This document shows positions 10,813-22,986 of a stretch of 64,000 nt of DNA, one piece after another; the stretch's first letter is position 1, and every line of letters starts with the position of its first letter. The stretch is taken from positions 796 to 64,795 of the forward strand of contig JAFGRC010000158.1 in the NCBI GenBank assembly GCA_016935355.1, read 5' to 3'. The DNA comes from Bacteroidales bacterium. Lineage in GTDB: Bacteria > Bacteroidota > Bacteroidia > Bacteroidales > UBA10428. The position numbers and the translations under genes are program-made. The notes beneath the pieces are model-generated. The model made no database searches, was not told where the DNA came from, and saw only the letters and a list, made by a program, of their open reading frames with translations.

Positions 10813-11661
10813 ATGAATGTTTCGGATCAGGATTATCAACTGTTTATATATACATTGAAGACCTTTTCAAAATATGACTTCAGTCTGTATTCCGAAAAAT
10901 CAATGAAGCGAAGGTTGATTAAGGTTATGACTGATAATCAAATGAATATTACAACACTGGTTTCCAGACTAAAAAATGACCAGGCATTCGTTGACAGAGT
11001 CGTGAATGAAATTACCGTAAATACAACCGAGCTATTTCGGGACCCGCAGGTATGGCATACACTTCGCTTTTCAGTTTTACCGAACTTCAGGAACAATTCC
11101 GTGATCAATATATGGCATGCCGGTTGTTCAACCGGCCAGGAAGTTTATTCCATGCTGATTCTGCTGAAAGAACTTAACATGCTGGAAAAAACAAAAATCT
11201 ATGCCACCGATATCAATTCAGATGTACTGAAAGTTGCAAAAACAGGAGAATACAGGTACCGCTTTAACCTGGCTTATCTGGATAATTTTGATAAAGTGAT
11301 AAAAGAAAATCCCTTTAACTATGAAGAATACAATGACGTACCCTATGAAAATTACTTCACAATTGACAAGTCAGCTGACTCCATAAAAATGAATGATTAT
11401 CTGAAAGAAAAACCGGTCTTCAAAAAACACGATCTTGTTACAGAAGACAATACCCATTATATAAAATTTGACCTGATCCTTTGCCGGAATGTGATTATAT
11501 ATTTCAGCTATGAATTGCAATGCAGGGTGTTTGATTTGTTTTATAAAAATCTGTACGATACAGGATGTCTTGTTCTGGGATTGCATGAGAGTATTCTGGG
11601 TACTTATTCGGTGAATTTTCACAAGAAGGGACATGTTTATGTTAAAACTCAAATGTCTTGA
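10813..11661 (+). CDS. CheR-type protein-glutamate O-methyltransferase
   Basis: CheR N-domain, then 'VNTTELFRDPQVW' and the SAM-binding signature 'IWHAGCSTGQEVYSMLILL'. Also 'DLILCRNVIIYF'. Confidence 0.85.
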   Translation: MNVSDQDYQLFIYTLKTFSKYDFSLYSEKSMKRRLIKVMTDNQMNITTLVSRLKNDQAFVDRVVNEITVNTTELFRDPQVWHTLRFSVLPNFRNNSVINIWHAGCSTGQEVYSMLILLKELNMLEKTKIYATDINSDVLKVAKTGEYRYRFNLAYLDNFDKVIKENPFNYEEYNDVPYENYFTIDKSADSIKMNDYLKEKPVFKKHDLVTEDNTHYIKFDLILCRNVIIYFSYELQCRVFDLFYKNLYDTGCLVLGLHESILGTYSVNFHKKGHVYVKTQMS

Positions 11662-11752: not shown

Positions 11753-13930
11753 ATGATATCGAAAAACATCAACTTTTTTAAAGGTAAAATACTGCTTCTG
11801 ATTATATTACTGGCCGTTTATACCGCTTCAATACTTTTGGTAAATGCGCTGTTCAGCATTCCGGAAAGCAGGTCAGCTGAGTACGGTAACCGGATTGAAG
11901 CGACCGGGAAAGACATATTGCGGCTTAAAATCATTCAAAGCGACCTGATGTTACATTACAGGCAGGAAATCAATTCATTTGAATCACAAGCTGATCAGAA
12001 TGCAAATGAAGCTGACGCAACCATGCAAAGGGTTACAAACGAAATCAATGATCTGTCCGGCATCCCTCAATTCCGCAAAGATACTGTATTAAAAAGCCTG
12101 CATGCTTTAGTTGCAGCAAACTTCTCCGCGTATTCCCGCAATTTCAGCGCTTTGTTCAGGGCTGTCCGCGAGAGAGGAAACCTGAATACCGGCCTCATCT
12201 CACAGTGGTTGAATCTGAGCAATCAGATGGATGTTCTTTCTTCGGGTTATAACGGATACACCAGCAATCAACTTTCACGGATCCGGCAATTGGAAATAAA
12301 TTACCTGCAAAGCTTCCAGTCCGGATACCTTGAAACCATATCCGGTATACTTGAAGAAGACATGAGCTTAATTGATTTTGAGCGTACCGGTGTGGCACGG
12401 GAAACTTTCTATGATTATATAACTCTGACAAACAGGCTTATTGAAGTGAACAAACGCATTCAAACACCGGGTGATGAAGGATTATTAACACAACTTTCTC
12501 TTGCTTTCGACGACACATTGAATGATTATAACCGGCTGGTGTCTGCCTTTCAGGAGGATACTGACCGTTCAGCATTTCTTTCAAGATTGACCGGATATTT
12601 GCTGGTGCTGATCATCTTTTCGGCTTGCGTGGTCTGGCTGATGAATGCATCAGTAAAACTGATCGTACAGCCTTTAAGTAAAGCCATTGCTTTTTCCGAC
12701 CAGATTTCCCGCGGCATTTTGCCTGAGAAGGAATTGGAGTTGAAGACCGGTAGCGAATTGGGAATTCTGGCCGGTAAACTGAATCAGGTTGTCTCCAAAA
12801 TGAAGGACAAGCTTTATTTTATTAAAGCCCTGAATGAAAAGAAATTTGATGTTTCATTAACACATATTGATGATCAGGACAAGCTGGGTAATGAATTGCT
12901 GTCGGTGCAGAAAAAGATGGTGGAAACAACTGAAGAACAGGCAAAAAATAACGCAGAGAACATGCGCAGGCGTTATATAAACGAAGGACTGGCACGGTTT
13001 GCCGAGATCCTGAGGATGAACAACAACGATATACATACCCTGGGGGATAACTTCATTCAGAATACTGTCAGGTATCTGAATGCCATACAGGGAGGATTGT
13101 TTTTGCTTAACGAAAACCATAATGAAAAAGCAACACTCAGTCTGGTTGCAGCTTTTGCATATGACAGGAAAAAGTATCTGGAAAAAACAATCGAAATCGG
13201 AGAAGGCCTGATCGGAACCTGCGCAATTGAAAAAAGTACCCTGAATCTGACAGAAATCCCGGAAAGCTATATATCCATCACTTCCGGACTGGGAGATACG
13301 CCTCCCGATAACCTTTTACTGGTTCCGGCTTTACATGAAGATGAGCTTATTGGAGTAATTGAAATAGCCGCCCTAAAAAAATTTCAGGATTTTGAGATCA
13401 CCTTCGTTAACGAAGTGTCCAAAAGTCTGGCGGCCACAATTGTTTATGCCCGCAACAATGAACGGACAACGCAGTTGCTTGCAAAATCACAGCAGCAGGC
13501 TCTTGAAATGGCCGAACAGGAAGAGGAAATGCGTCAAAATATGGAAGAGCTGAAAGCGACCCAGGAAGAATCAACCAGACGGGAAGAAGAGTACAAGGGT
13601 ATGGTGGATGCCATCGGGAATTCGGTGTTTATTGTTGAATATGATCTGCAGGGATGCATTCGCAGTGCAAATGAGAAATTATGCACGTTCCTTGGTAAAA
13701 AGTCTGATGAAATAAGCGGTAAAACTCATCATCAGGTGTTTAAAGGAAATCTGGATCCCGATGAAAGCTTCTGGAAAACGTTATGTGAAAAAACCTGCAA
13801 AACCGCACAGGAAACAATCACATCGGGGAAAAGGAAAGAAATTCTGAAGGAACATTTTGCAGCCGTGTATAAATCGGATGGCGTCCCGGTAAAATTCATG
13901 AATTTCATCATTAAGGTTTCATGTGTATAA
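11753..13930 (+). CDS. Membrane sensor: TM, ~270-aa extracytoplasmic region, TM, HAMP, GAF, Glu-rich coiled coil, PAS; no enzymatic output domain
   Basis: Two hydrophobic helices ('ILLLIILLAVYTASILLV', 'LTGYLLVLIIFSACVVWL'). HAMP-like 'IVQPLSKAIAFSDQISRG...LGILAGKLNQVVSKM'. GAF with 'LIGTCAIEKSTLNLTEIPESYISITSGLGD'. Coiled coil 'EEEMRQNMEELKATQEE'. C-terminal PAS-like ~110 aa. Confidence 0.75.
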   Translation: MISKNINFFKGKILLLIILLAVYTASILLVNALFSIPESRSAEYGNRIEATGKDILRLKIIQSDLMLHYRQEINSFESQADQNANEADATMQRVTNEINDLSGIPQFRKDTVLKSLHALVAANFSAYSRNFSALFRAVRERGNLNTGLISQWLNLSNQMDVLSSGYNGYTSNQLSRIRQLEINYLQSFQSGYLETISGILEEDMSLIDFERTGVARETFYDYITLTNRLIEVNKRIQTPGDEGLLTQLSLAFDDTLNDYNRLVSAFQEDTDRSAFLSRLTGYLLVLIIFSACVVWLMNASVKLIVQPLSKAIAFSDQISRGILPEKELELKTGSELGILAGKLNQVVSKMKDKLYFIKALNEKKFDVSLTHIDDQDKLGNELLSVQKKMVETTEEQAKNNAENMRRRYINEGLARFAEILRMNNNDIHTLGDNFIQNTVRYLNAIQGGLFLLNENHNEKATLSLVAAFAYDRKKYLEKTIEIGEGLIGTCAIEKSTLNLTEIPESYISITSGLGDTPPDNLLLVPALHEDELIGVIEIAALKKFQDFEITFVNEVSKSLAATIVYARNNERTTQLLAKSQQQALEMAEQEEEMRQNMEELKATQEESTRREEEYKGMVDAIGNSVFIVEYDLQGCIRSANEKLCTFLGKKSDEISGKTHHQVFKGNLDPDESFWKTLCEKTCKTAQETITSGKRKEILKEHFAAVYKSDGVPVKFMNFIIKVSCV

Positions 13931-14063: not shown

Positions 14064-14882
14064 ATGAACGAGCTTGGTATTATCCACATCAAAGAAATTG
14101 AACGGACCATAAAAAGCATGCATGAGTATGATTTTTCCGGTTATGCAATGACTTCTTTCAAATACAGGCTCGAAAGACTTATGATGAAATATAACATACA
14201 GGAACCGGAACATCTGATTAAGAAAATACAGGATGAGCCGGATTTCTTTGATAATTTTTTATTCGACATCAGCATTCCCTCAACGGAAATGTTCAGGGAT
14301 CCATCTTTGTGGAGATGGTTGCGTGAAGAGTATTTCACAGAATCCATAGGCAAAAACCCGGGGAAATTTAAAATATGGCTACCGCTTTGTGTGTCGGGAG
14401 GAGAATTGTATTCACTTGCTATTCTATTAAGTGAATTGGAATTGCTTGAACAGGTGCAGATTATAGCGACCAGTATCAGTGCAACCAGTATTGACATCAT
14501 TAAAACCGGACAATATGATCTGAAAAAGATTGCCGTATCAGAAGAGAATTACAACCGGGCAAACGGAATAAAAGAGTTATCAACATATTACACCATTGAT
14601 CGTTACTATGCTTACCTTGACACCTCGTTAATTAAGAACGTTGAATTTAATAAAGTAAATATTATTTTTGATCACTCACCACAAAATGTTAAGCTGATCT
14701 TGTTCAGGAACAGCCTGATATATTATAATCCAAGTCTGCAGGAAAGCATTCTAGGGTTACTGCACAGTTCACTTTCTGCCGGCGGGCATTTGATTGTTGG
14801 AATAAAGGAAATCAATTCATTTCGGGACTTTGAAATCGTCAATGAAGCGGAAAGTGTATATAAAAAAAAGCCAGGCAGGTGA
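14064..14882 (+). CDS. CheR-like methyltransferase paralog with a divergent SAM-binding signature
   Basis: The CheR N-domain and 'STEMFRDPSLW' are conserved. The signature reads 'IWLPLCVSGGELYSLAILL' instead of the '...AGCSTG(E/Q)E...' seen in the first paralog. Confidence 0.75.
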   Translation: MNELGIIHIKEIERTIKSMHEYDFSGYAMTSFKYRLERLMMKYNIQEPEHLIKKIQDEPDFFDNFLFDISIPSTEMFRDPSLWRWLREEYFTESIGKNPGKFKIWLPLCVSGGELYSLAILLSELELLEQVQIIATSISATSIDIIKTGQYDLKKIAVSEENYNRANGIKELSTYYTIDRYYAYLDTSLIKNVEFNKVNIIFDHSPQNVKLILFRNSLIYYNPSLQESILGLLHSSLSAGGHLIVGIKEINSFRDFEIVNEAESVYKKKPGR

Positions 14883-14886
14883 AGTT

Positions 14887-15447
14887 ATGAAATATAAAGC
14901 AGTGATAATAGGTGGATCCGCGGGCAGTTTTCAGGTTGTGACCAAAATCCTGAGTGCCTTGCCGGTTTATTTTCCGTTGCCGATGTTGCTGTGTTTCCAC
15001 AGGTTAAAGCATGTCCGTTCCGGTTTTGTTGAAGCATTGTCGCTTAAATCCCAGATCCCCGTTCTTGAACCGTTCGACAAAGAGCAGCTCAAACCCGGGA
15101 AGGCCTATCTGGCTCCGGCAAATTATCATATGTATGTTGAGCTGGCAAACCGTATTGCCTTATCTACAGAAGATACGGTAAACCATTCAAGACCATCGAT
15201 TGATTTAGCCTTTATCACTGCAGCCAATGCCTACCGTGATAAACTGATCGGGATAATACTCTCAGGGGCCAATAAAGACGGGGCCTTTGGACTAAAAAAA
15301 GTGCATGATAACGGAGGATTGACAGTCGTACAGGATCCCAACGAATGTGAAGTAAAAATGATGACCCAGTCTGCTTTGCAACTTACAAAGGTGGATTTCG
15401 TATATACCACTAACCAGATCATAAACCTGCTGTTACAATTGAAATAA
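14887..15447 (+). CDS. CheB-type protein-glutamate methylesterase, catalytic domain only (no receiver domain)
   Basis: 'AVIIGGSAGSFQ' (Ser motif), 'CFHRLKH' (His region) and 'LSGANKDGAFGLKKV' (Asp motif). ATG at 14887 lies 4 nt after the cheR2 stop. At 186 aa there is no room for a REC domain. Confidence 0.8.
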   Translation: MKYKAVIIGGSAGSFQVVTKILSALPVYFPLPMLLCFHRLKHVRSGFVEALSLKSQIPVLEPFDKEQLKPGKAYLAPANYHMYVELANRIALSTEDTVNHSRPSIDLAFITAANAYRDKLIGIILSGANKDGAFGLKKVHDNGGLTVVQDPNECEVKMMTQSALQLTKVDFVYTTNQIINLLLQLK

Positions 15448-15450
15448 GAT

Positions 15451-16236
15451 ATGTTTAATTTGTTTAAATACAGAAAATTGGGGATAATCATACTGATCGT
15501 GATGATCATATCATTTTTGCTTTCTCTGGTGACATTATGGAATTCTCTGCTTGCAAATGAAACACATCAAGAAGGATGGATCGCGTTGTTCATAGTTTTG
15601 TTATTCGGCAGCGGAATATCCCTGTTTCTGATCCTGCACACACTTACAAACCTGGAGAAATTTGATCTTTATGTACAGCGCCTTCTTGAAAATGAAAAAA
15701 CCCTGATGGAAGTACCAGACAAAGATGAAAAAGAAAATCCTGAAAATGAAGCATCAACGGATATAAATGATGTTGAAAAATCTGTGAAAAAAATATTGAC
15801 CGGTATTGATCCAAAGTCCACAGCGGAGTTGGGCGATCAGCTGCTCAGAAATCTTTCAAAAGAGCTTGATTTTGTTCAGGGCATCATGTATATCAAAGAG
15901 CAGAAAAGTAAAAAATTCATTCCTTCAGGAACATATGCACTTAACAGTCAGGAACCGGAGCCTTTCATCATTGGTGACGGTATTGCCGGGGAAGCCGCAG
16001 AAGGAAAAACCATGATCCGGATCACAGATATTCCCGAAAATTATTTCAATGCTTCTTCAGGATTGGGCGATTCCAAACCTAAACACCTCTTATTCGTACC
16101 TGTCGTGTACAAGAATCAATGTATCGCATTGATTGAAGCCGGATCTTTTAAGAAACCCGACAGGCAAACGGAAAAAGTATTATACGGTTTATCCGTTGAA
16201 ACCGGTAAAACTTTGCATAAATTATTAAATATCTGA
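15451..16236 (+). CDS. Membrane-anchored stand-alone GAF-domain protein
   Basis: Two N-terminal TM helices, an acidic linker, then a GAF with 'ITDIPENYFNASSGLGDSKPKHLLFVPV'. This GAF is paralogous to those of the two flanking sensors. Confidence 0.7.
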   Translation: MFNLFKYRKLGIIILIVMIISFLLSLVTLWNSLLANETHQEGWIALFIVLLFGSGISLFLILHTLTNLEKFDLYVQRLLENEKTLMEVPDKDEKENPENEASTDINDVEKSVKKILTGIDPKSTAELGDQLLRNLSKELDFVQGIMYIKEQKSKKFIPSGTYALNSQEPEPFIIGDGIAGEAAEGKTMIRITDIPENYFNASSGLGDSKPKHLLFVPVVYKNQCIALIEAGSFKKPDRQTEKVLYGLSVETGKTLHKLLNI

Positions 16237-18857
16237 TGAAAAGAATCAGGCTATATCGAATTATTCCAAACGTATTGAATTCCAATGCCGTATTAATGGC
16301 TTTTGCTGCAGGCCTGACCTTTCTTCTGGTTACCTGGATATTTGAATTCATTCATACCAGGACACAAGTTACTTTTTACGGTATCTTAGAGATCCATAAA
16401 AACAATCCTTTGTTATTGATATTCGATTCTCTTCCAGTTTTTTATGTAGTCGTTGTATATGTTTTTGAGCGCCGCATTAATAAGGAAAAAATCCTGTCTG
16501 AGTCAAGGTTCACCGAGCTTGAAGAACGCATGAACGCAATGGCAGATTTCGCACAACAGATCGGTCAGGGGAATTACCAGGCAAATCTTAACATTAAAAA
16601 TGATCATGATATTCTGGCTGAATCACTTGTACACATGCGGGACAACCTGATTGAAACCACAAGGAAAGAATCTGACCAAAGCTGGATTGCTGCGGGTAAG
16701 GACAGCATATCCAATTTGCTTCGTATGCATAATAAGATCGATGAACTGGCCAAAAATATTATCAGGGATCTTGTGAATTACATCAAAGCTGTTCAGGGTG
16801 CCATGTATATTTATAACGAAGATAAAAAAACGCTGACCAATATTGCAACATATGCATACAACCGGAACAAGCATGTTTCTCAGGAAATAAATGTCGGTTA
16901 TGGACTGATCGGGGAATGCGCATACGAAATGGACTATATATACCGGACTGAAATTCCCGATGATTATTTTACCATAAATTCCGGCATTCTGGGACAGCAA
17001 AAGCCACAGAGTATGCTGCTGATCCCTTTGATCACGGATGAAAAGCTTCAGGGTGTGATGGAGTTTGCTTCACTCGAAGACCGGATTCCTGAACTTACCA
17101 TACAATTACTGAATGAACTCGGAGAAATCATTGCCCGCACCATTTTCAATCTTAAAGTTACGCAACGGACGGAGAAACTGCTCACGGAATCACAGCAAAT
17201 GACACTTGAATTACAGGAGAATGAGGAAGAATTGCGCCAGAATGCCGAAGAAATGAGGGCTACTCAGGAAGAATTACAGAAGTCAAATGAGCAGCTTGAA
17301 AGTAAGATACTTGAAGTTGAAAATGCTCAGAAAAGGCAATATTCATTGCTGGAAAATGCTTCAGAGATCATATCCATTTATGATGAGAACATGTCCATGA
17401 AGTATGTGAGTCCATCCGTAATCAAAATACTGGGATTCACACCTGAGGAAATGATGCACGGAAAGGATATTGACAGGCTCACAAGAAAAGGGGAAGGAAG
17501 CATGCGCAGCATGTTTACCGAATTGATTGAAGATCCCGAAAAACCAGTTACCATCCAGTACACTTACATGAAGCAGAATGGACAGAAAATATTTCTGGAA
17601 ACCACCGGAAGAAACCTGCTCCATGATGCTGCCATTGGCGGGATCATATTAAATTCCACTGACATAACTGAACGGAAGCGGGCTGAACGGGAAGAAAGAT
17701 TAAAAAGCAAAATGCAGGCTTTATCGGAAAATTCACTGGATCTGATCATTCGCCTGAGCACCGTGGGACAATTCTTTTATGCAAATCCGGTTGTTAAGAA
17801 TTTTATCGGGATCGATCCTTCCGAACTGATAAACAAAACGCTGCAGGAAATAAGCTGCAATGAAAAACTGCTTCAATATTTTAAAGAAACTATTGAAACC
17901 ATCAAATCCAATCCCGATAAGACCTCGGCTGAATTAACCATTCCCGGTGTGATTGACGGTGCAGAAAGTGACAGGATCATGCAATTTGCAGCCATTCCTG
18001 AATTTAACGAAAGTGAGCTGGAAACCATTCTTTTCGTAGGCCATGATATCACTGAAGCCAAGCAAATAGAACTTGAAATACAGGATAAAAACAGAAAGAT
18101 AGAAGATTCCATTAATTACGCCCAGCGCATTCAAAGTTCCATACTTCCTGAGATCAGGCAGGTCAGGGAACTTTTGCCAAAATCATTTATTTACTATAAA
18201 CCAAGGGATGTTGTCAGCGGTGATTTCCCATGGTTTTTCTCGCATGGCAATGATGTGTATATTGCAGCCGTTGATTGTACCGGACATGGTGTGCCGGGTG
18301 CCCTGCTTTCTTTTGTTGGATATTTTCTCCTGAATAATATTGTGGATCATGACCGGAAGTTATCTGCTTCTGAAATATGTGACATGCTGCATCGCGGCGT
18401 TCGGAAAACCCTTAAGCAGGAAAGTCAGGATGCGGAAGCACGGGACGGAATGGATATCGCTTTTTGTAAAATAAGTCATACAGAAAAAGAAGTACAGTAT
18501 GCAGGAGCGCACAGACCGCTTTATCTGCTGCGTAATGGTGAACTGACCGAATTCAAGGGTAACCGTAAAGCCATCGGCGGCATACCCCACAGGAAAAAAG
18601 AGGAGGAAGATTTTACAAATTATGTCATCAAATACAAGCGAGGAGATAAAATTTTCTTCTTTTCCGATGGATTACCTGATCAGCTTGGTGGTCCGGAAAG
18701 CAAAAAATACTCACCAAAGCGCATTCGTGAAATGATCCTTGAAAATAAAGATCTTCCCATTGAAGAATACAACCGTCTATTTTCCAATGATTTTGAACAA
18801 TGGAGAGGAGACGGAAAACAAATAGATGACGTACTTTTAATTGGAATCGAATTTTAA
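16236..18857 (+). CDS. Membrane sensor phosphatase: TMs, HAMP-like, GAF, Glu-rich coiled coil, 2x PAS, PP2C/SpoIIE Ser/Thr phosphatase (SiaA/RsbU-like)
   Basis: GAF with 'RTEIPDDYFTINSGILGQ'. Coiled coil 'ENEEELRQNAEEMRATQEELQKSNEQLE'. PAS blocks. SpoIIE motifs 'AQRIQSSILP', 'VSGDFPWF', 'DCTGHGVPGALLS', 'FFFSDGLPDQ', 'QIDDVLLIGIEF'. The start overlaps the upstream stop (TGATG). Confidence 0.85.
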   Translation: MKRIRLYRIIPNVLNSNAVLMAFAAGLTFLLVTWIFEFIHTRTQVTFYGILEIHKNNPLLLIFDSLPVFYVVVVYVFERRINKEKILSESRFTELEERMNAMADFAQQIGQGNYQANLNIKNDHDILAESLVHMRDNLIETTRKESDQSWIAAGKDSISNLLRMHNKIDELAKNIIRDLVNYIKAVQGAMYIYNEDKKTLTNIATYAYNRNKHVSQEINVGYGLIGECAYEMDYIYRTEIPDDYFTINSGILGQQKPQSMLLIPLITDEKLQGVMEFASLEDRIPELTIQLLNELGEIIARTIFNLKVTQRTEKLLTESQQMTLELQENEEELRQNAEEMRATQEELQKSNEQLESKILEVENAQKRQYSLLENASEIISIYDENMSMKYVSPSVIKILGFTPEEMMHGKDIDRLTRKGEGSMRSMFTELIEDPEKPVTIQYTYMKQNGQKIFLETTGRNLLHDAAIGGIILNSTDITERKRAEREERLKSKMQALSENSLDLIIRLSTVGQFFYANPVVKNFIGIDPSELINKTLQEISCNEKLLQYFKETIETIKSNPDKTSAELTIPGVIDGAESDRIMQFAAIPEFNESELETILFVGHDITEAKQIELEIQDKNRKIEDSINYAQRIQSSILPEIRQVRELLPKSFIYYKPRDVVSGDFPWFFSHGNDVYIAAVDCTGHGVPGALLSFVGYFLLNNIVDHDRKLSASEICDMLHRGVRKTLKQESQDAEARDGMDIAFCKISHTEKEVQYAGAHRPLYLLRNGELTEFKGNRKAIGGIPHRKKEEEDFTNYVIKYKRGDKIFFFSDGLPDQLGGPESKKYSPKRIREMILENKDLPIEEYNRLFSNDFEQWRGDGKQIDDVLLIGIEF

Positions 18858-18880
18858 TAATATAGTAAAACCAAGCGAAT

Positions 18881-19462
18881 ATGGACAAAAAACCAGATGT
18901 TAAAGGCTTTCTTGAGTTTGTATACGAGTTTTATAAAACCATGAAAGCTCACGAAATAACCCTGGTATATGAGGGTGAAATTACGCATCAGATTACTAAA
19001 GCTTTTACATCGCTCACGGAATCAAACATGTCTAAAGATGATGAACCCAATTCAGTGCAGCGGCGGGTATTTCATGTAATGGTCGAATGCCTGCAAAATA
19101 TAAGCAAACACGCTGATGATTTTACTTCACATGATTATTTGTTTTCGGGGAGGGGCATATTCCTGGTAAGCAAAGGTGAAAATGAATACAGTGTTACAAC
19201 CGGCAATGCTGTGGAAAACGACAAGATCGGATACCTGACCGATTTGTTGGAGAGCATCAACACAATGGGGAAGGAAGAGCTTAAAGAGCTTTACAAAAAA
19301 CAGATGAAAGAAGGGAGGCTTTCGGAAAAAGGCGGTGCCGGACTGGGATTCATCGACATTAAAAGAAAAACCAACAGAGAGCTGGAATATCACTTTTTAC
19401 CCATTACAAATGATACTTCGTTTTTTCTGTTAACATCAACCATTTCAAGATCTGATATTTAA
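18881..19462 (+). CDS. SiaB/RsbW-like HATPase-fold Ser/Thr protein kinase
   Basis: 193 aa. N-box-like 'VMVECLQNISKHAD' and G-rich lid 'SEKGGAGLGFIDIKRK'. It sits between a PP2C phosphatase and a DUF1987 gene, as in siaABC. Confidence 0.7.
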   Translation: MDKKPDVKGFLEFVYEFYKTMKAHEITLVYEGEITHQITKAFTSLTESNMSKDDEPNSVQRRVFHVMVECLQNISKHADDFTSHDYLFSGRGIFLVSKGENEYSVTTGNAVENDKIGYLTDLLESINTMGKEELKELYKKQMKEGRLSEKGGAGLGFIDIKRKTNRELEYHFLPITNDTSFFLLTSTISRSDI

Positions 19463-19466
19463 AATT

Positions 19467-19850
19467 ATGAGAGATATGGAAACAATTAAAATTCAAGGTA
19501 CGGAAGATACACCAAGAATTATACTGGATGCTGAAAATGATATTTTGGAAATTTCCGGACGATCATTACCGGAGGATGTGGCAGCATTTTATGAACCGGT
19601 GTTGAACTGGCTGAAAGACTATGGTGAAAATCCAAAAGATAAAACCATATTCAACTTTAAGCTGACGTACTTCAATACGGCTTCTTCCAAACTTCTCCTT
19701 GACATCCTGATGATTCTGGAAGAGCTGAAAGAAAAAGGGAATGATATACTGATCAGATGGCATTATCCTGAGGAAGATGAGGACATGGAAGAAGCCGGTG
19801 ATGAATATGCGGATATCGTGGATGTCCCATTTGAAAAAGTATCTTATTGA
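19467..19850 (+). CDS. DUF1987 / SiaC-like regulatory phosphoprotein
   Basis: 127 aa. 'IKIQGTEDTPRIILDAENDILEISGRSLPEDVAAFYEPVLNWL' and 'FNFKLTYFNTASSKLLLDIL' match the DUF1987 pattern. The tail is acidic. Confidence 0.75.
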   Translation: MRDMETIKIQGTEDTPRIILDAENDILEISGRSLPEDVAAFYEPVLNWLKDYGENPKDKTIFNFKLTYFNTASSKLLLDILMILEELKEKGNDILIRWHYPEEDEDMEEAGDEYADIVDVPFEKVSY

Positions 19851-19911
19851 TCCGGGTCATATCATCTTTTTCAATCCGGTTGTTTACTTCCTAAATAAAT
19901 CTGCCGTCTGA

Positions 19912-22900
19912 ATGAGCGAAGAGATTCTGAGAGCGTTAATGCAACTTTTTGCAATCATTGCAAAACAGGATGAAGGCGTTGAATCGACTCAGGAAGAGTA
20001 CGTAAAAAATTTTTTACATCAACAACTTAATGATGATGCCGTTAAAGAATACTTTGCGCTTTTTCAGCAATATGCCGGTCTGAATGGCCAGGATAATGAT
20101 GTTGAAAATGAAGAAGATAAAGGATCCCGTAAATTAACTTCCGTAAAGGATTCTGTACGTATACTCGGCCTATGCAAAAAAATCAACAAAACCTTAACCC
20201 AGAAACAGAAAATTGTTGTTCTTGTCAGACTGTTTGAAATAGTAAATGCGGATCGTAAGTTCACCGGCCAGCGCATGCAAATCATCAATACTGTTGCAGA
20301 TGTATTCAAAGTCAACAAAGAAGAATTTTCCAGCATTGAATCGTTTGTAGTCCACAATGAACTTGAATATCTTAACGATGTCAATGTTTTGATTATTAAT
20401 GATAAGAACATTGCATACAGACATGCAAAGAAAATTAGTACGAAACAGCTTGACGGGAATATATACATACTGCGAATAAACAGTGTCGATCTTTATTTTC
20501 TAAAATATTCAGGTACTGAAGATTTATTTCTGAACGGATTACCGGTAAGGAACGACCGCGTCTATCTTTTTGCCAACGGGAGTGCGGTCAGGTTGCCCAA
20601 GGCATCGCCCGTTTATTACAGTGATGTGGTCTCCCATTTTCTTGCCGATCTTGTTACGAACCAGATCTCCTATGTCGCCAGGAATCTGCAGTTCACCTTC
20701 CCGAACGGAAATATTGGATTGCACGATATCAGCTTTTCCGAAACACACGGTCGTCTAATCGGAATAATGGGAGCCAGTGGTGCCGGCAAGACAACATTGC
20801 TGAATGTGCTCTGTGGAGTTGAAGAGCCCTCAAGGGGGGAAGTCTGGATCAACGGAATAAACCTGCACAAAGAAAGGCAAAAGCTTGAAGGAGTAATTGG
20901 TCTTGTACCCCAGGATGACCTGCTTATTGAAGAGCTTACAATATATCAGAACCTTTACTACAACGCTAAACTTTGTTTCAAAGACAAATCGGAACAGGAC
21001 ATTGATCAATTGGTTATCAAGACATTACAAAACCTGGGACTGTATGATAAGAAAGATTTAAAGGTAGGTTCCCCGTTGAAAAAAATTATCAGCGGCGGTC
21101 AGCGAAAAAGGCTTAACATTGCCCTGGAGCTTATTCGCGAACCTTCTATATTATTTATTGATGAGCCGACATCGGGCCTTTCATCACGTGATTCCGAAAA
21201 TGTGATGGACCTGCTTCGCGAACTTGCACTTAAGGGCAAGCTTATTTTCGTTGTCATTCATCAGCCTTCCTCAGAGATCTACAAGATGTTCGACAAAATG
21301 ATCATTCTTGATGCTGGGGGATATCTGATTTATTACGGAAATCCGGTTGAGGCCGTTATGTATTTTAAGCGCAAGGACGCCCAGATCAACAGTGAATTCG
21401 GAGAATGTCCCACATGCGGTAACGTTAATCCGGAATTGATCTTCAATATCATTGAAGCCAAAGTAGTCGATGAATTCGGTAATTATACGGACACCCGAAA
21501 GGTTACTCCGGTCCGGTGGGAAGAACATTATAAAGACTCTTTTCAGTACTCAGAAATAAAACCTGTTACAGATTCTCCTCCGAAAAACCTTAAAATTCCG
21601 GACTGGATTAGTCAGTTGAAAATATATACACTGCGTGATTTTTTATCAAAAATCAGCAACCGGCAGTACGTATCACTGAGTTTGCTCGAAGCCCCGATTC
21701 TGGCTTTTATTCTTTCAATTATCATCCGGTATATCGAAGATCCCAAATCCTCCCAATATATTTTCAGACTGAATGAAAATATACCCATATTTGTTTTCAT
21801 GGCCCTGATCGTAGCGCTTTTCCTGGGATTGACCGTCAGCGCCGAGGAGATTTTCAGGGACCGGAAGATTCTGAAAAGGGAAGCCTTCCTGAACCTGAGC
21901 CGTTCCAGTTACCTCGTATCCAAAGTATTCATCTTGTTTGGCATATCAGCGATTCAGGCTTTTCTTTTTGTCGTGATAGCCAATAGTATTCTCGGGATCC
22001 GGAATATGGGTCTTTACTACTGGCTGGCACTATTCTCAACGGCTGCTTTTGCCAATATGCTCGGACTTAACATTTCAGCTTCCTTCAATTCCGCTGTGAC
22101 CATATACATCCTGATACCATTGGTTATGATACCGATGATGATACTTAGCGGGGCAATGTTTAGTTTTGACAAGCTGAACCGCAATTTCAGCAGGGTCGAT
22201 AAGGTTCCTCTGATTGCTGAGTGCATGGTTACAAAATGGTCTTATGAAGCCCTTATGGTAAACCAGTATAAGAACAACAGGTTCCTGAAATCAAAACTTT
22301 ATGAGATTGATAAAGAAGAAAGCCAGGCTGATTATAAAAAAGTTTACTGGCTTCCGGAGCTTTATGAGCGTCTGGAAAGAATAAATATGGAACTGGCCAG
22401 CAAGAACAGCATTGAACTGTCCGCAAATGACGTGATCCTGATTTCCAACGAAATCATAAAAGAATCTTCTTTAAACAAAGAAGTGGCTGCTTTCAATAAT
22501 ATTGATGACCTGAATCCTGTAAATTTTGACCTGCAGACTTCGGATGCCGTGTTTGAATATCTGCAGGCGCTCGATCAATACTATGGAGAAAAATTCCAGA
22601 AAATCATCCGCGTTAAGGAGAACTACATTAATTACTGGCTTGAAAATGACCCTGAAACATACAATAATACCAGAGACCAGTACCACAATGAGGGAGTTTC
22701 CGACATAGTCAGGAAAGTATATGAAAAAAACAAAATTCTTGAATTTAACCACCAGCTTATCCAGCATTATGACCCTATTTACGACGATCCATATGTGGTA
22801 AACCGGTTAACGGTCAGGACACACTTTTATGCTCCTGAGAAGCCTTTTCTGGGCAGGACATATGATACCTTCTGGTATAATATTATTGTAATCTGGCTGT

Positions 22901-22986
22901 TGACTTCCATTCTTTATCTTTCATTGTATTATTCATGGTTGAAAAAGATAACCGGTCTTTTTGAGCGATTTAAACGCAAAAGTTGA
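19912..22986 (+). CDS. Fusion protein: TerB-like N-terminal domain, beta-rich linker domain, ABC ATPase, ABC-2-type permease, long C-terminal extension with a terminal TM
   Basis: TerB-like 'ILRALMQLFAIIAKQDEGV...' duplicated with 'VVLVRLFEIVNADRKFTGQ'. Walker A 'GIMGASGAGKTTLLN', signature 'ISGGQRKRLNIA', Walker B 'ILFIDEPTSGLS' and H-loop 'VVIHQPS'. About 6 TM helices follow. Confidence 0.8.
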   Translation: MSEEILRALMQLFAIIAKQDEGVESTQEEYVKNFLHQQLNDDAVKEYFALFQQYAGLNGQDNDVENEEDKGSRKLTSVKDSVRILGLCKKINKTLTQKQKIVVLVRLFEIVNADRKFTGQRMQIINTVADVFKVNKEEFSSIESFVVHNELEYLNDVNVLIINDKNIAYRHAKKISTKQLDGNIYILRINSVDLYFLKYSGTEDLFLNGLPVRNDRVYLFANGSAVRLPKASPVYYSDVVSHFLADLVTNQISYVARNLQFTFPNGNIGLHDISFSETHGRLIGIMGASGAGKTTLLNVLCGVEEPSRGEVWINGINLHKERQKLEGVIGLVPQDDLLIEELTIYQNLYYNAKLCFKDKSEQDIDQLVIKTLQNLGLYDKKDLKVGSPLKKIISGGQRKRLNIALELIREPSILFIDEPTSGLSSRDSENVMDLLRELALKGKLIFVVIHQPSSEIYKMFDKMIILDAGGYLIYYGNPVEAVMYFKRKDAQINSEFGECPTCGNVNPELIFNIIEAKVVDEFGNYTDTRKVTPVRWEEHYKDSFQYSEIKPVTDSPPKNLKIPDWISQLKIYTLRDFLSKISNRQYVSLSLLEAPILAFILSIIIRYIEDPKSSQYIFRLNENIPIFVFMALIVALFLGLTVSAEEIFRDRKILKREAFLNLSRSSYLVSKVFILFGISAIQAFLFVVIANSILGIRNMGLYYWLALFSTAAFANMLGLNISASFNSAVTIYILIPLVMIPMMILSGAMFSFDKLNRNFSRVDKVPLIAECMVTKWSYEALMVNQYKNNRFLKSKLYEIDKEESQADYKKVYWLPELYERLERINMELASKNSIELSANDVILISNEIIKESSLNKEVAAFNNIDDLNPVNFDLQTSDAVFEYLQALDQYYGEKFQKIIRVKENYINYWLENDPETYNNTRDQYHNEGVSDIVRKVYEKNKILEFNHQLIQHYDPIYDDPYVVNRLTVRTHFYAPEKPFLGRTYDTFWYNIIVIWLLTSILYLSLYYSWLKKITGLFERFKRKS

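Follow-up and report, generated by a model that had tools for sequence, protein, structure and literature searches.

A Glu-Glu ladder in the signalling helix of kinase-less Bacteroidota sensors, a candidate substrate of CheR and CheB encoded beside a SiaB/SiaC-type partner switch

CheR and CheB are the textbook enzymes of chemotaxis, yet about half of the sampled Bacteroidota encode CheR, and some of these do so without any chemoreceptor. The present analysis concerns a stretch of 64,000 nucleotides from a Bacteroidales bacterium (GenBank assembly GCA_016935355.1, contig JAFGRC010000158.1, positions 796 to 64,795 of the forward strand; this whole stretch is referred to below as the window), in which a membrane sensor, here called P0002, is encoded among genes for CheR and CheB. 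P0002 contains a Glu-rich helix between its GAF and PAS domains, in which pairs of Glu residues recur at every seventh position. Judging from sequence comparison, we consider this helix to be, on balance, the probable substrate of CheR and CheB.

The methylation sites of enterobacterial chemoreceptors follow the consensus Glu-Glu-X-X-Ala followed by Ser or Thr, in which the second Glu is the methyl acceptor (PMC1079850). The hexad EELKAT of P0002 (residues 598-603) fits this consensus, and the seven-residue spacing of its Glu-Glu (EE) ladder equals that of positions 297/304/311 in Tsr and 168/175/182 in FrzCD. The system is like the MCPs (methyl-accepting chemotaxis proteins) Tsr, Tar and FrzCD in combining the Glu-Glu-X-X-Ala-Thr motif with a spacing of seven on one face of the helix, with adjacent CheR and CheB genes, and with many paralogs that have variable sensors. 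Unlike these receptors, P0002 is found without the MCPsignal domain (PF00015), the hairpin four-helix bundle, CheA and CheW, and it is not an MCP.

A second described system is RsbK of Bacillus cereus, whose signalling helix is methylated by the CheR homolog RsbM (Chen et al. 2012, as summarised in PMC4574943 and PMC12848376). In these summaries RsbK feeds a PP2C partner switch, and methylation is reported to tune an interaction (PMC4574943). By analogy, RsbK is an experimental precedent for the methylation of a helix that follows a GAF domain. P0002 shares with RsbK, in the domain order outlined in PMC4574943, a membrane sensor, HAMP, GAF and signalling helix, and like the RsbK-RsbM-RsbY system it has a CheR-type methyltransferase encoded alongside, and a PP2C-driven partner switch at the predicted end of the pathway. 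Unlike in RsbK, the helix leads into a PAS domain in P0002, and into PAS-PAS-PP2C in P0004, a receptor-phosphatase encoded further downstream, with no HisKA, HATPase or REC domain. Further differences from the RsbK system as described are the dedicated demethylase, CheB, in the operon of the window, the use of a SiaB/SiaC-type switch rather than RsbV/RsbW/sigma-B, and the presence of many paralogous receptors for each enzyme set. The likeness to RsbK rests on architecture and on RsbK-like coils of Bacteroidota, which adjoin the nearest CheR/CheB paralogs (see below).

A protein class named MAC, for methyl-accepting coiled coil, and comprising MAC1 and MAC2, was reportedly proposed by Wuichet and Zhulin in 2010. 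According to the summary in a preprint (bioRxiv 10.1101/2022.05.07.491037), MAC proteins combine receptor and kinase functions. About 80% of MAC species are described as also having ordinary chemotaxis systems, to be compared with 42 of 50 genomes carrying the motif here. P0002 resembles the MAC class, as outlined for MiST3 (PMC6943060), in having a Glu-Glu heptad coil tied to CheB and CheR without MCP, CheA or CheW, and it resembles MAC2 in that CheB and CheR are separately encoded, in the operon cheR1-P0002-cheR2-cheB; this likeness is drawn from secondary descriptions and from the association of coil and genes. Unlike MAC proteins as described, P0002 and most other proteins with its motif carry no kinase.

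The genes downstream resemble the SiaABCD system of Pseudomonas aeruginosa, as described in PMC7647112 and PMC8457831, by family matches to SiaA (PP2C), SiaB and SiaC. Unlike SiaABCD, the cluster has no SiaD diguanylate cyclase and a TerB-ABC transporter instead, its phosphatase carries GAF, EE helix and PAS, and CheR and CheB are encoded with it. Our literature search found no paper describing a system that links CheR/CheB to SiaABC, and nothing more on MAC proteins or CheB-CheR fusions than the 2022 preprint. We read the P0002 system, from its sequences, as a probable kinase-less variant of MAC or RsbK-like sensors that would feed a PP2C/SiaB/SiaC switch.

The features of P0002 that matter for this reading are the following.

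11753..13930, forward strand: receptor P0002, 725 residues, with transmembrane (TM) helix, helical extracytoplasmic domain, second TM helix, HAMP-like region, GAF, long helix with the EE ladder, and PAS
13388..13618, forward strand: predicted continuous signalling helix from GAF to PAS, residues 546-622 (DSSP on the AlphaFold2 model; pLDDT 66-87)
13460..13603, forward strand: conserved motif block of 48 residues, ERTTQLLAKSQQQALEMAEQEEEMRQNMEELKATQEESTRREEEYKGM, residues 570-617, with its core at 13511-13573 (ortholog and paralog alignments)
13544..13561, forward strand: hexad EELKAT, E598-T603
13523-13528, 13565-13570 and 13586-13591, forward strand: the other EE rungs, E591/E592, E605/E606 and E612/E613, respectively

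The core at 13511-13573 translates on the forward strand as AEQEEEMRQNMEELKATQEES, which corresponds to residues 587-607 of the 725-residue open reading frame (ORF). Pfam identifies a GAF domain at residues 426-563 and a C-terminal PAS domain at about 612-715; an output domain was looked for with Pfam and none was found, and enzymatic output is absent. An AlphaFold2 model computed from 53 orthologs (mean pLDDT 80; secondary structure by DSSP) predicts TM helices on either side of a helical extracytoplasmic domain, the first N-terminal and the second continuing as a HAMP-like pair, with helices at 2-70 and 244-319, GAF strands at 446-540, the helix 546-622 and the PAS domain at 626-721. The EE-ladder motif lies mid-position in the predicted helix 546-622. 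When the hydrophobic residues are assigned to heptad positions d and a, the EE pairs would fall on b and c and the Ala-Thr on f and g, i.e. on the exposed face.

A preliminary description of this segment, made from the sequence alone, had reported the translation and the hexad at 13544-13561, and both are confirmed by retranslation. Its HAMP-GAF-PAS sensor without output domain is borne out by Pfam and the AlphaFold2 model. What it called a heptad-like coil is an exact ladder, since the pairs 591/592, 598/599, 605/606 and 612/613 follow each other at seven-residue intervals on one predicted helix, and the sensor that it placed directly after a cheR gene is preceded by cheR1 (10813-11661) and followed by cheR2 (14064-14882).

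By itself, the bare hexad is not significant, as the genome has 32 matches to the pattern EExxA[ST] among ORFs of 80 or more residues, near the 25.6 expected from composition. A four-rung EE ladder with exact seven-residue spacing occurs once in the genome, in P0002, versus 5e-5 expected, and three-rung EE ladders occur six times versus 0.02 expected. All six fall within five paralogs, which have the extended motif QEEE[ML]RQN[MAI]EE[LM]xAT in common. Among the best 120 orthologs of P0002, all from metagenome-assembled genomes (MAGs) of Bacteroidales and with 53-76% identity to it, E598, E599 and L600 are present in 120/120 and A602 and T603 in 119/120. The block S579-QQQAxEMAEQEEEMRQNMEELKATQEES-x-RREEE is nearly invariant in these 120 sequences, and no other part of P0002 shows as long a series of invariant columns in the ortholog alignments.

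The alignment of the five paralogous segments was used as a profile (A1) to search a library of 1.84 billion representative proteins. It matched 3,437 clusters at E <= 1e-3, of which 875 at E <= 1e-10, and the top matches have 2-9 copies of the cassette per protein, either alternating with PAS-sized spacers of ~165 residues or in direct tandems of 40-80 residues. In the library proteins P0124-P0160, the 25-residue cassette is repeated two to nine times (in tandem in e.g. P0125 and P0137), together with GAF and PAS domains and without kinase or cyclase. Position statistics were derived from 149 distant representatives, which contain 520 instances of the motif. Conservation is high at the polar positions (EEE 94/96/94%, R 93%, Q 95%, N 92%, EE 97/96%, Q 94%), whereas the hydrophobic core positions, at which L and M interchange freely, are less so. 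Conservation of the exposed polar residues above that of the core suggests that a trans-acting protein recognises this face, beyond the demands of coil packing.

A scan of 185,579 species genomes yielded >530 motif loci, nearly all of them in Bacteroidota (Bacteroidales, Marinilabiliales, Cytophagales and others); cultivable carriers of the system include, e.g., Perlabentimonas gracilis and isolates of Draconibacterium and Marinifilum. An output domain is lacking from most motif proteins, and those with an enzymatic output (P0004 and, among the 149 representatives, nine) have a PP2C phosphatase; HisKA and HATPase domains were sought in P0002, P0004 and 10 scanned representatives, and none were found. 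The motif is currently without a Pfam model.

The source genome, which is 94% complete, encodes two CheR proteins and one CheB, and these are the three of this operon. It was searched for MCPsignal and the CheW-like domain, neither of which was found, and neither MCP nor CheW was found in three complete genomes of another family with the same system (G111, G311 and G359). This implies that CheR and CheB in these genomes are without their classical substrate. In a sample of 401 genomes drawn evenly from the phylum, CheR is present in 229; co-occurrence with any CheR is therefore not discriminating and was dropped as a test, and the window's own receiver-less CheB was used instead. Close orthologs of this CheB, defined by at least 55% identity, occur in exactly five of the 401 genomes (55-61% identity, at least 222 bits), and the same five genomes, and no others, have strong motif matches (Fisher p ~1e-11 without phylogenetic correction, with about three lineages represented). 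The full-length SiaA-like receptor-phosphatase and the GAF-coil module are also found in the same five genomes only; none of the 401 genomes has either of them without the CheB ortholog, which leaves no case in which the motif could have eroded after loss of CheB.

The second set consisted of 50 genomes chosen for a motif gene without CheR within 10 kb. CheR is encoded in all 50 of them, and an ortholog of the CheB (56% identity or more) in 48. A dedicated CheB is retained beside the classical one, and dispersed motif proteins are, apart from the two exceptions, confined to genomes with the CheB ortholog. CheR is located within 10 kb at only 11 of the best 79 motif loci, which makes gene neighbourhood weak as a main argument. 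Many motif genes are scattered or stand in tandem arrays of paralogs, with one enzyme set per genome, and in this they resemble dispersed MCP genes. Absence of MCPs was also considered as a general trait of motif genomes and was rejected, as it holds only for G000 (the source genome), G111, G311, G359 and six MAGs, and 42 of the 50 genomes have MCPs.

The preliminary description had suggested an ortholog alignment as a check on the hexad and its heptad register, and both turn out to be essentially invariant in the 120 orthologs. It had also cautioned that the coil might be coincidental; the motif is instead a specific module, present in 5/5 genomes with the CheB ortholog versus 0/396 others. 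Its reading of the helix as a methyl-accepting site is supported by each of the comparative tests made, though circumstantially.

The other genes of the cluster are listed below; the SiaA, SiaB and SiaC assignments are family-level matches, not equivalogs.

10813..11661, forward strand: cheR1, canonical CheR methyltransferase, 282 residues (Pfam CheR 3.8e-37 plus CheR_N)
14064..14882, forward strand: cheR2, divergent CheR paralog, 272 residues (Pfam CheR 1.5e-23)
14887..15447, forward strand: cheB, receiver-less methylesterase, catalytic domain only (Pfam CheB_methylest 2.8e-47)
15451..16236, forward strand: TM and GAF protein, 261 residues, without the motif, kept in the cluster of other genomes
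16236..18857, forward strand: receptor-phosphatase P0004, 873 residues, with TM, GAF, motif, PAS, PAS and PP2C, SiaA-like (Pfam GAF, PAS, SpoIIE)
17163..17306, forward strand: second copy of the motif, QRTEKLLTESQQMTLELQENEEELRQNAEEMRATQEELQKSNEQLESK, in P0004, with EEMRAT at 17247-17264
18881..19462, forward strand: SiaB-family protein kinase (NCBIfam SiaB_fam_kinase 1.3e-49 and Pfam DUF6272, both above cut-off)
19467..19850, forward strand: SiaC-family phosphoprotein (Pfam SiaC 8e-42, above cut-off; NCBIfam 1.2e-24, below equivalog cut-off)
19912..22986, forward strand: fusion of TerB, ABC ATPase and ABC-2 permease, 1024 residues

The S-adenosylmethionine (SAM) motifs of CheR1, WHAGCSTGQEVYS, ATDIN and CRNVIIYF, agree with those of Bacillus subtilis CheR (5FTW). 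Compared with 5FTW, the SAM-binding motifs of CheR2 are degenerate (WLPLCVSGGELYS, ATS for ATD, and FRNSLIYY for CRNVFIYF). CheR2 orthologs elsewhere also lack canonical SAM motifs, whereas CheR1 orthologs retain them, and from these sequences this paralog may have lost its activity or may serve as an accessory. In clusters with one CheR, that CheR is canonical. The ATG of cheB is located 4 nt past the cheR2 stop, in an ORF that is open from a TTG at 14830, and the encoded protein carries GGSAGS, FHR and NKDG, which is consistent with a Ser/His/Asp triad. The NCBIfam SiaA model matches P0004 at 2.1e-48, which falls short of its equivalog cut-off, and the motif core of P0004 has 14/19 identities to that of P0002.

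The gene order of the cluster recurs at locus L001, on a 984-kb contig with a P0002 ortholog of 59% identity, including the cheR-sensor-cheR-cheB synteny and the TerB-ABC fusion after siaC (18035-21109). Where SiaABCD has the SiaD cyclase, this fusion is a possible output of the switch. The CheR-CheB-GAF-phosphatase-SiaB-SiaC core is kept in G243, a genome of the same taxonomic order, and in the class-level relatives G111, G311 and G359. In the complete genome G243 the cluster (locus L036, G243:C1:2364001-2384000) directly adjoins a classical chemotaxis cluster with a third CheR, two CheW, CheA-like CheW domains and an MCP. The CheB of that chemotaxis cluster has 375 residues, of which ~180 are extra N-terminal residues, probably a receiver domain, and the order of the sensor and cheR1 genes at this locus is unlike that of the window. 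In the 2.8-Mb source genome, nine SiaC-family phmmer matches on different contigs and four SiaB-like kinases were identified, which suggests that it has several partner-switch modules.

Five motif paralogs are encoded in the source genome, among them P0004 close to P0002 and three that are unlinked. Other genomes also have several paralogs, and the likeness between these proteins does not extend to the extracytoplasmic part but starts with the HAMP region or past it. One unlinked paralog (contig C168, locus L017; 554 residues, sensor-TM-HAMP-GAF) ends ~25 residues past the EE ladder, without PAS or output domain, and similar proteins of 430-480 residues that end at the coil are found in G311 and at several MAG loci. 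A Y_Y_Y-type beta-propeller sensor kinase of 1047 residues on contig C101 contains EELQAT, and was not counted as it has no extended motif and no A1 match. Its coil, EELMQQKEELQATLENL, lies immediately before HisKA, and the match to the hexad there is of another type.

Coils with EE pairs are found in two further groups of proteins from the phylum. The CheB-CheR fusion proteins (MAC1-type) have 5-8 heptads of the type NEEL[QE][ST][ST] at ~200 residues past the CheR domain. A comparison by hhalign of the motif profile with 14 MAC1-type coils gave 87% probability and an E of 4e-6, with the EE pairs in register; this suggests similarity and is not proof of homology, since low-complexity coils can converge. 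The second group was reached through the next-closest receiver-less CheB proteins (36-44% identity), which occur in 16 motif-less genomes. At nine of ten loci inspected, they are part of CheR-CheB pairs directly beside hybrid kinases of ~1,180 residues. In the two kinases that were scanned with Pfam, those of L138 and L139, the order is CHASE3-(HAMP)-GAF-coil-HisKA-HATPase-REC (3 stretches). The coil of these kinases shows an EE ladder, e.g. ASEEELRVQQEELEQTNEELSER compared with AEQEEEMRQNMEELKATQEESTRR in P0002, as judged by eye and from a weak hidden Markov model score. The RsbK-like arrangement, with an EE-ladder coil upstream of the H-box, was observed at loci L138, L139 and L165-L171 across several families of Bacteroidota, usually with small receiver-like and roughly 400-residue kinase-related neighbours.

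The comparisons above establish how the sequence is built and conserved, that a helix is predicted, and which features co-occur in genomes; from these we infer methylation of the helix, an acceptor Glu, an effect on signalling and a link from P0002 to P0004. We propose that in P0002 the stretch from about 587 to 613 is an EE ladder exposed to solvent, with one pair per heptad on the signal helix from GAF to PAS, and that CheR1 would methylate exposed Glu residues of this ladder, with CheR2 perhaps as an accessory. E599 in EELKAT would be the likeliest acceptor, because it best fits Glu-Glu-X-X-Ala-Thr with the second Glu as acceptor, and E592, E606 and E613 may be further sites. The receiver-less CheB would strip the methyl groups. 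Charge neutralisation could shift the stability or the register of the dimeric helix and hence the strength of the relayed sensor input, acting on GAF-PAS coupling in P0002 and on the coupling of GAF to PAS-PAS-PP2C in P0004. The PP2C activity of P0004 towards SiaC-P would then be altered, with the SiaB-like kinase opposing it and the TerB-ABC transporter as a possible output. P0002 and its unlinked paralogs would in this way act as kinase-less chemoreceptors with variable sensors and a constant adaptation helix. More tentatively, and with rather less confidence than we have in the helix as a substrate, they could constitute a second, kinase-independent class of methyl-accepting receptors, defined by the shared 25-residue cassette, by CheR/CheB adaptation, and by a Ser/Thr switch that would control an envelope ABC exporter.

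Several observations weigh against methylation of this helix. The enterobacterial hexad is matched by one of the four EE pairs of P0002 only (598/599). No homology of the motif to the MCP adaptation region was detected by Pfam, and a profile search of the PDB gave nothing significant. In P0002 the helix probably pairs in parallel as a two-helix coil, whereas CheR and CheB normally act on a four-helix bundle. Some methylation sites of enterobacterial receptors are encoded as Gln; at the EE positions of the motif, Gln stands for Glu in only 1-2% of the 520 instances. Two of the 50 genomes in the second set, which were reached via MAG contigs, are without the CheB ortholog, and 42 of the 50 also have classical MCPs, so that the presence of CheR alone is not diagnostic. 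The cluster with CheB also encodes a motif protein, P0004, which means that the co-occurrence is partly built in and that co-inheritance cannot separate a substrate from a phosphatase partner; it would also be compatible with a coil through which hetero-oligomers with the phosphatase are formed. Finally, in the account of the 2022 preprint the MAC class is purely bioinformatic and experimentally uncharacterised (bioRxiv 10.1101/2022.05.07.491037).

The strongest alternative, which we regard as unlikely although it deserves serious consideration, is that the motif is an S-helix or interaction surface that is not modified and that binds P0004, the TM-GAF protein or SiaB/SiaC, or hetero-dimerises the receptors, with another element being methylated by CheR and CheB. 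The helix does link GAF to PAS in the manner of S-helices, starting with E570-R571-T572, and the rarity of Gln at the EE positions also counts in favour of this alternative. The motif is moreover co-inherited with the whole cluster, the SiaA-like protein included, and not with CheB alone, and most motif proteins, having no output of their own, would require contact with something. This explanation, however, offers CheR and CheB no candidate substrate where MCPs are absent from the genome, and in our own reading of the sequences no other Glu-rich element is common to all paralogs. Sister CheR-CheB pairs adjoin RsbK-type kinases, and it is the same helix that is methylated in RsbK of B. cereus. 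Up to nine cassettes per protein suit modification better than a single docking site. The two readings are also compatible, since methylation could tune an interaction, as reported for RsbK.

It is far less probable, to the point of being very doubtful, that T603 in A-T-Q-E-E is phosphorylated by the SiaB-like kinase and dephosphorylated by the PP2C phosphatase, and that the helix is a site of phosphorylation rather than methylation. The cluster does encode a Ser/Thr kinase and a phosphatase, and Thr is found at this position in 81% of the 520 instances. In about 15%, however, the residue is Ile, Ala, Val or Met, which better fits the small or neutral residue of the MCP consensus; the known substrate of SiaB is SiaC (PMC7647112), and the strict link to CheB would be left unexplained. 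The least probable explanation, a chance match of the hexad within a generic Glu-rich coil before a PAS domain and without specific function, has the chance-level count of the bare hexad in its favour and is already contradicted by the invariance of the block in the orthologs, the number of A1 clusters, the excess of EE ladders, and the restriction of the strong motif to five of 401 genomes of a phylum in which PAS domains and coiled coils are ubiquitous.

The cassette is short and near-invariant and gives convenient tryptic peptides (SQQQALEMAEQEEEMR, QNMEELK and ATQEESTR), which makes the proposal directly testable by mass spectrometry. A methylation result on the cassette could give the MAC class, as proposed in 2010, an experimental footing, and a curated motif model would improve the annotation of proteins that are labelled merely as GAF or PAS domain proteins. 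If the favoured reading, in which the helix is the substrate of CheR and CheB, is true, the role of these enzymes would be accounted for in the MCP-less Bacteroidota that carry this system, and a chemotaxis-style methylation "memory" would act on a phosphatase/kinase partner switch. Reversible glutamate methylation would then be a general gain control of signalling helices, well beyond chemotaxis.

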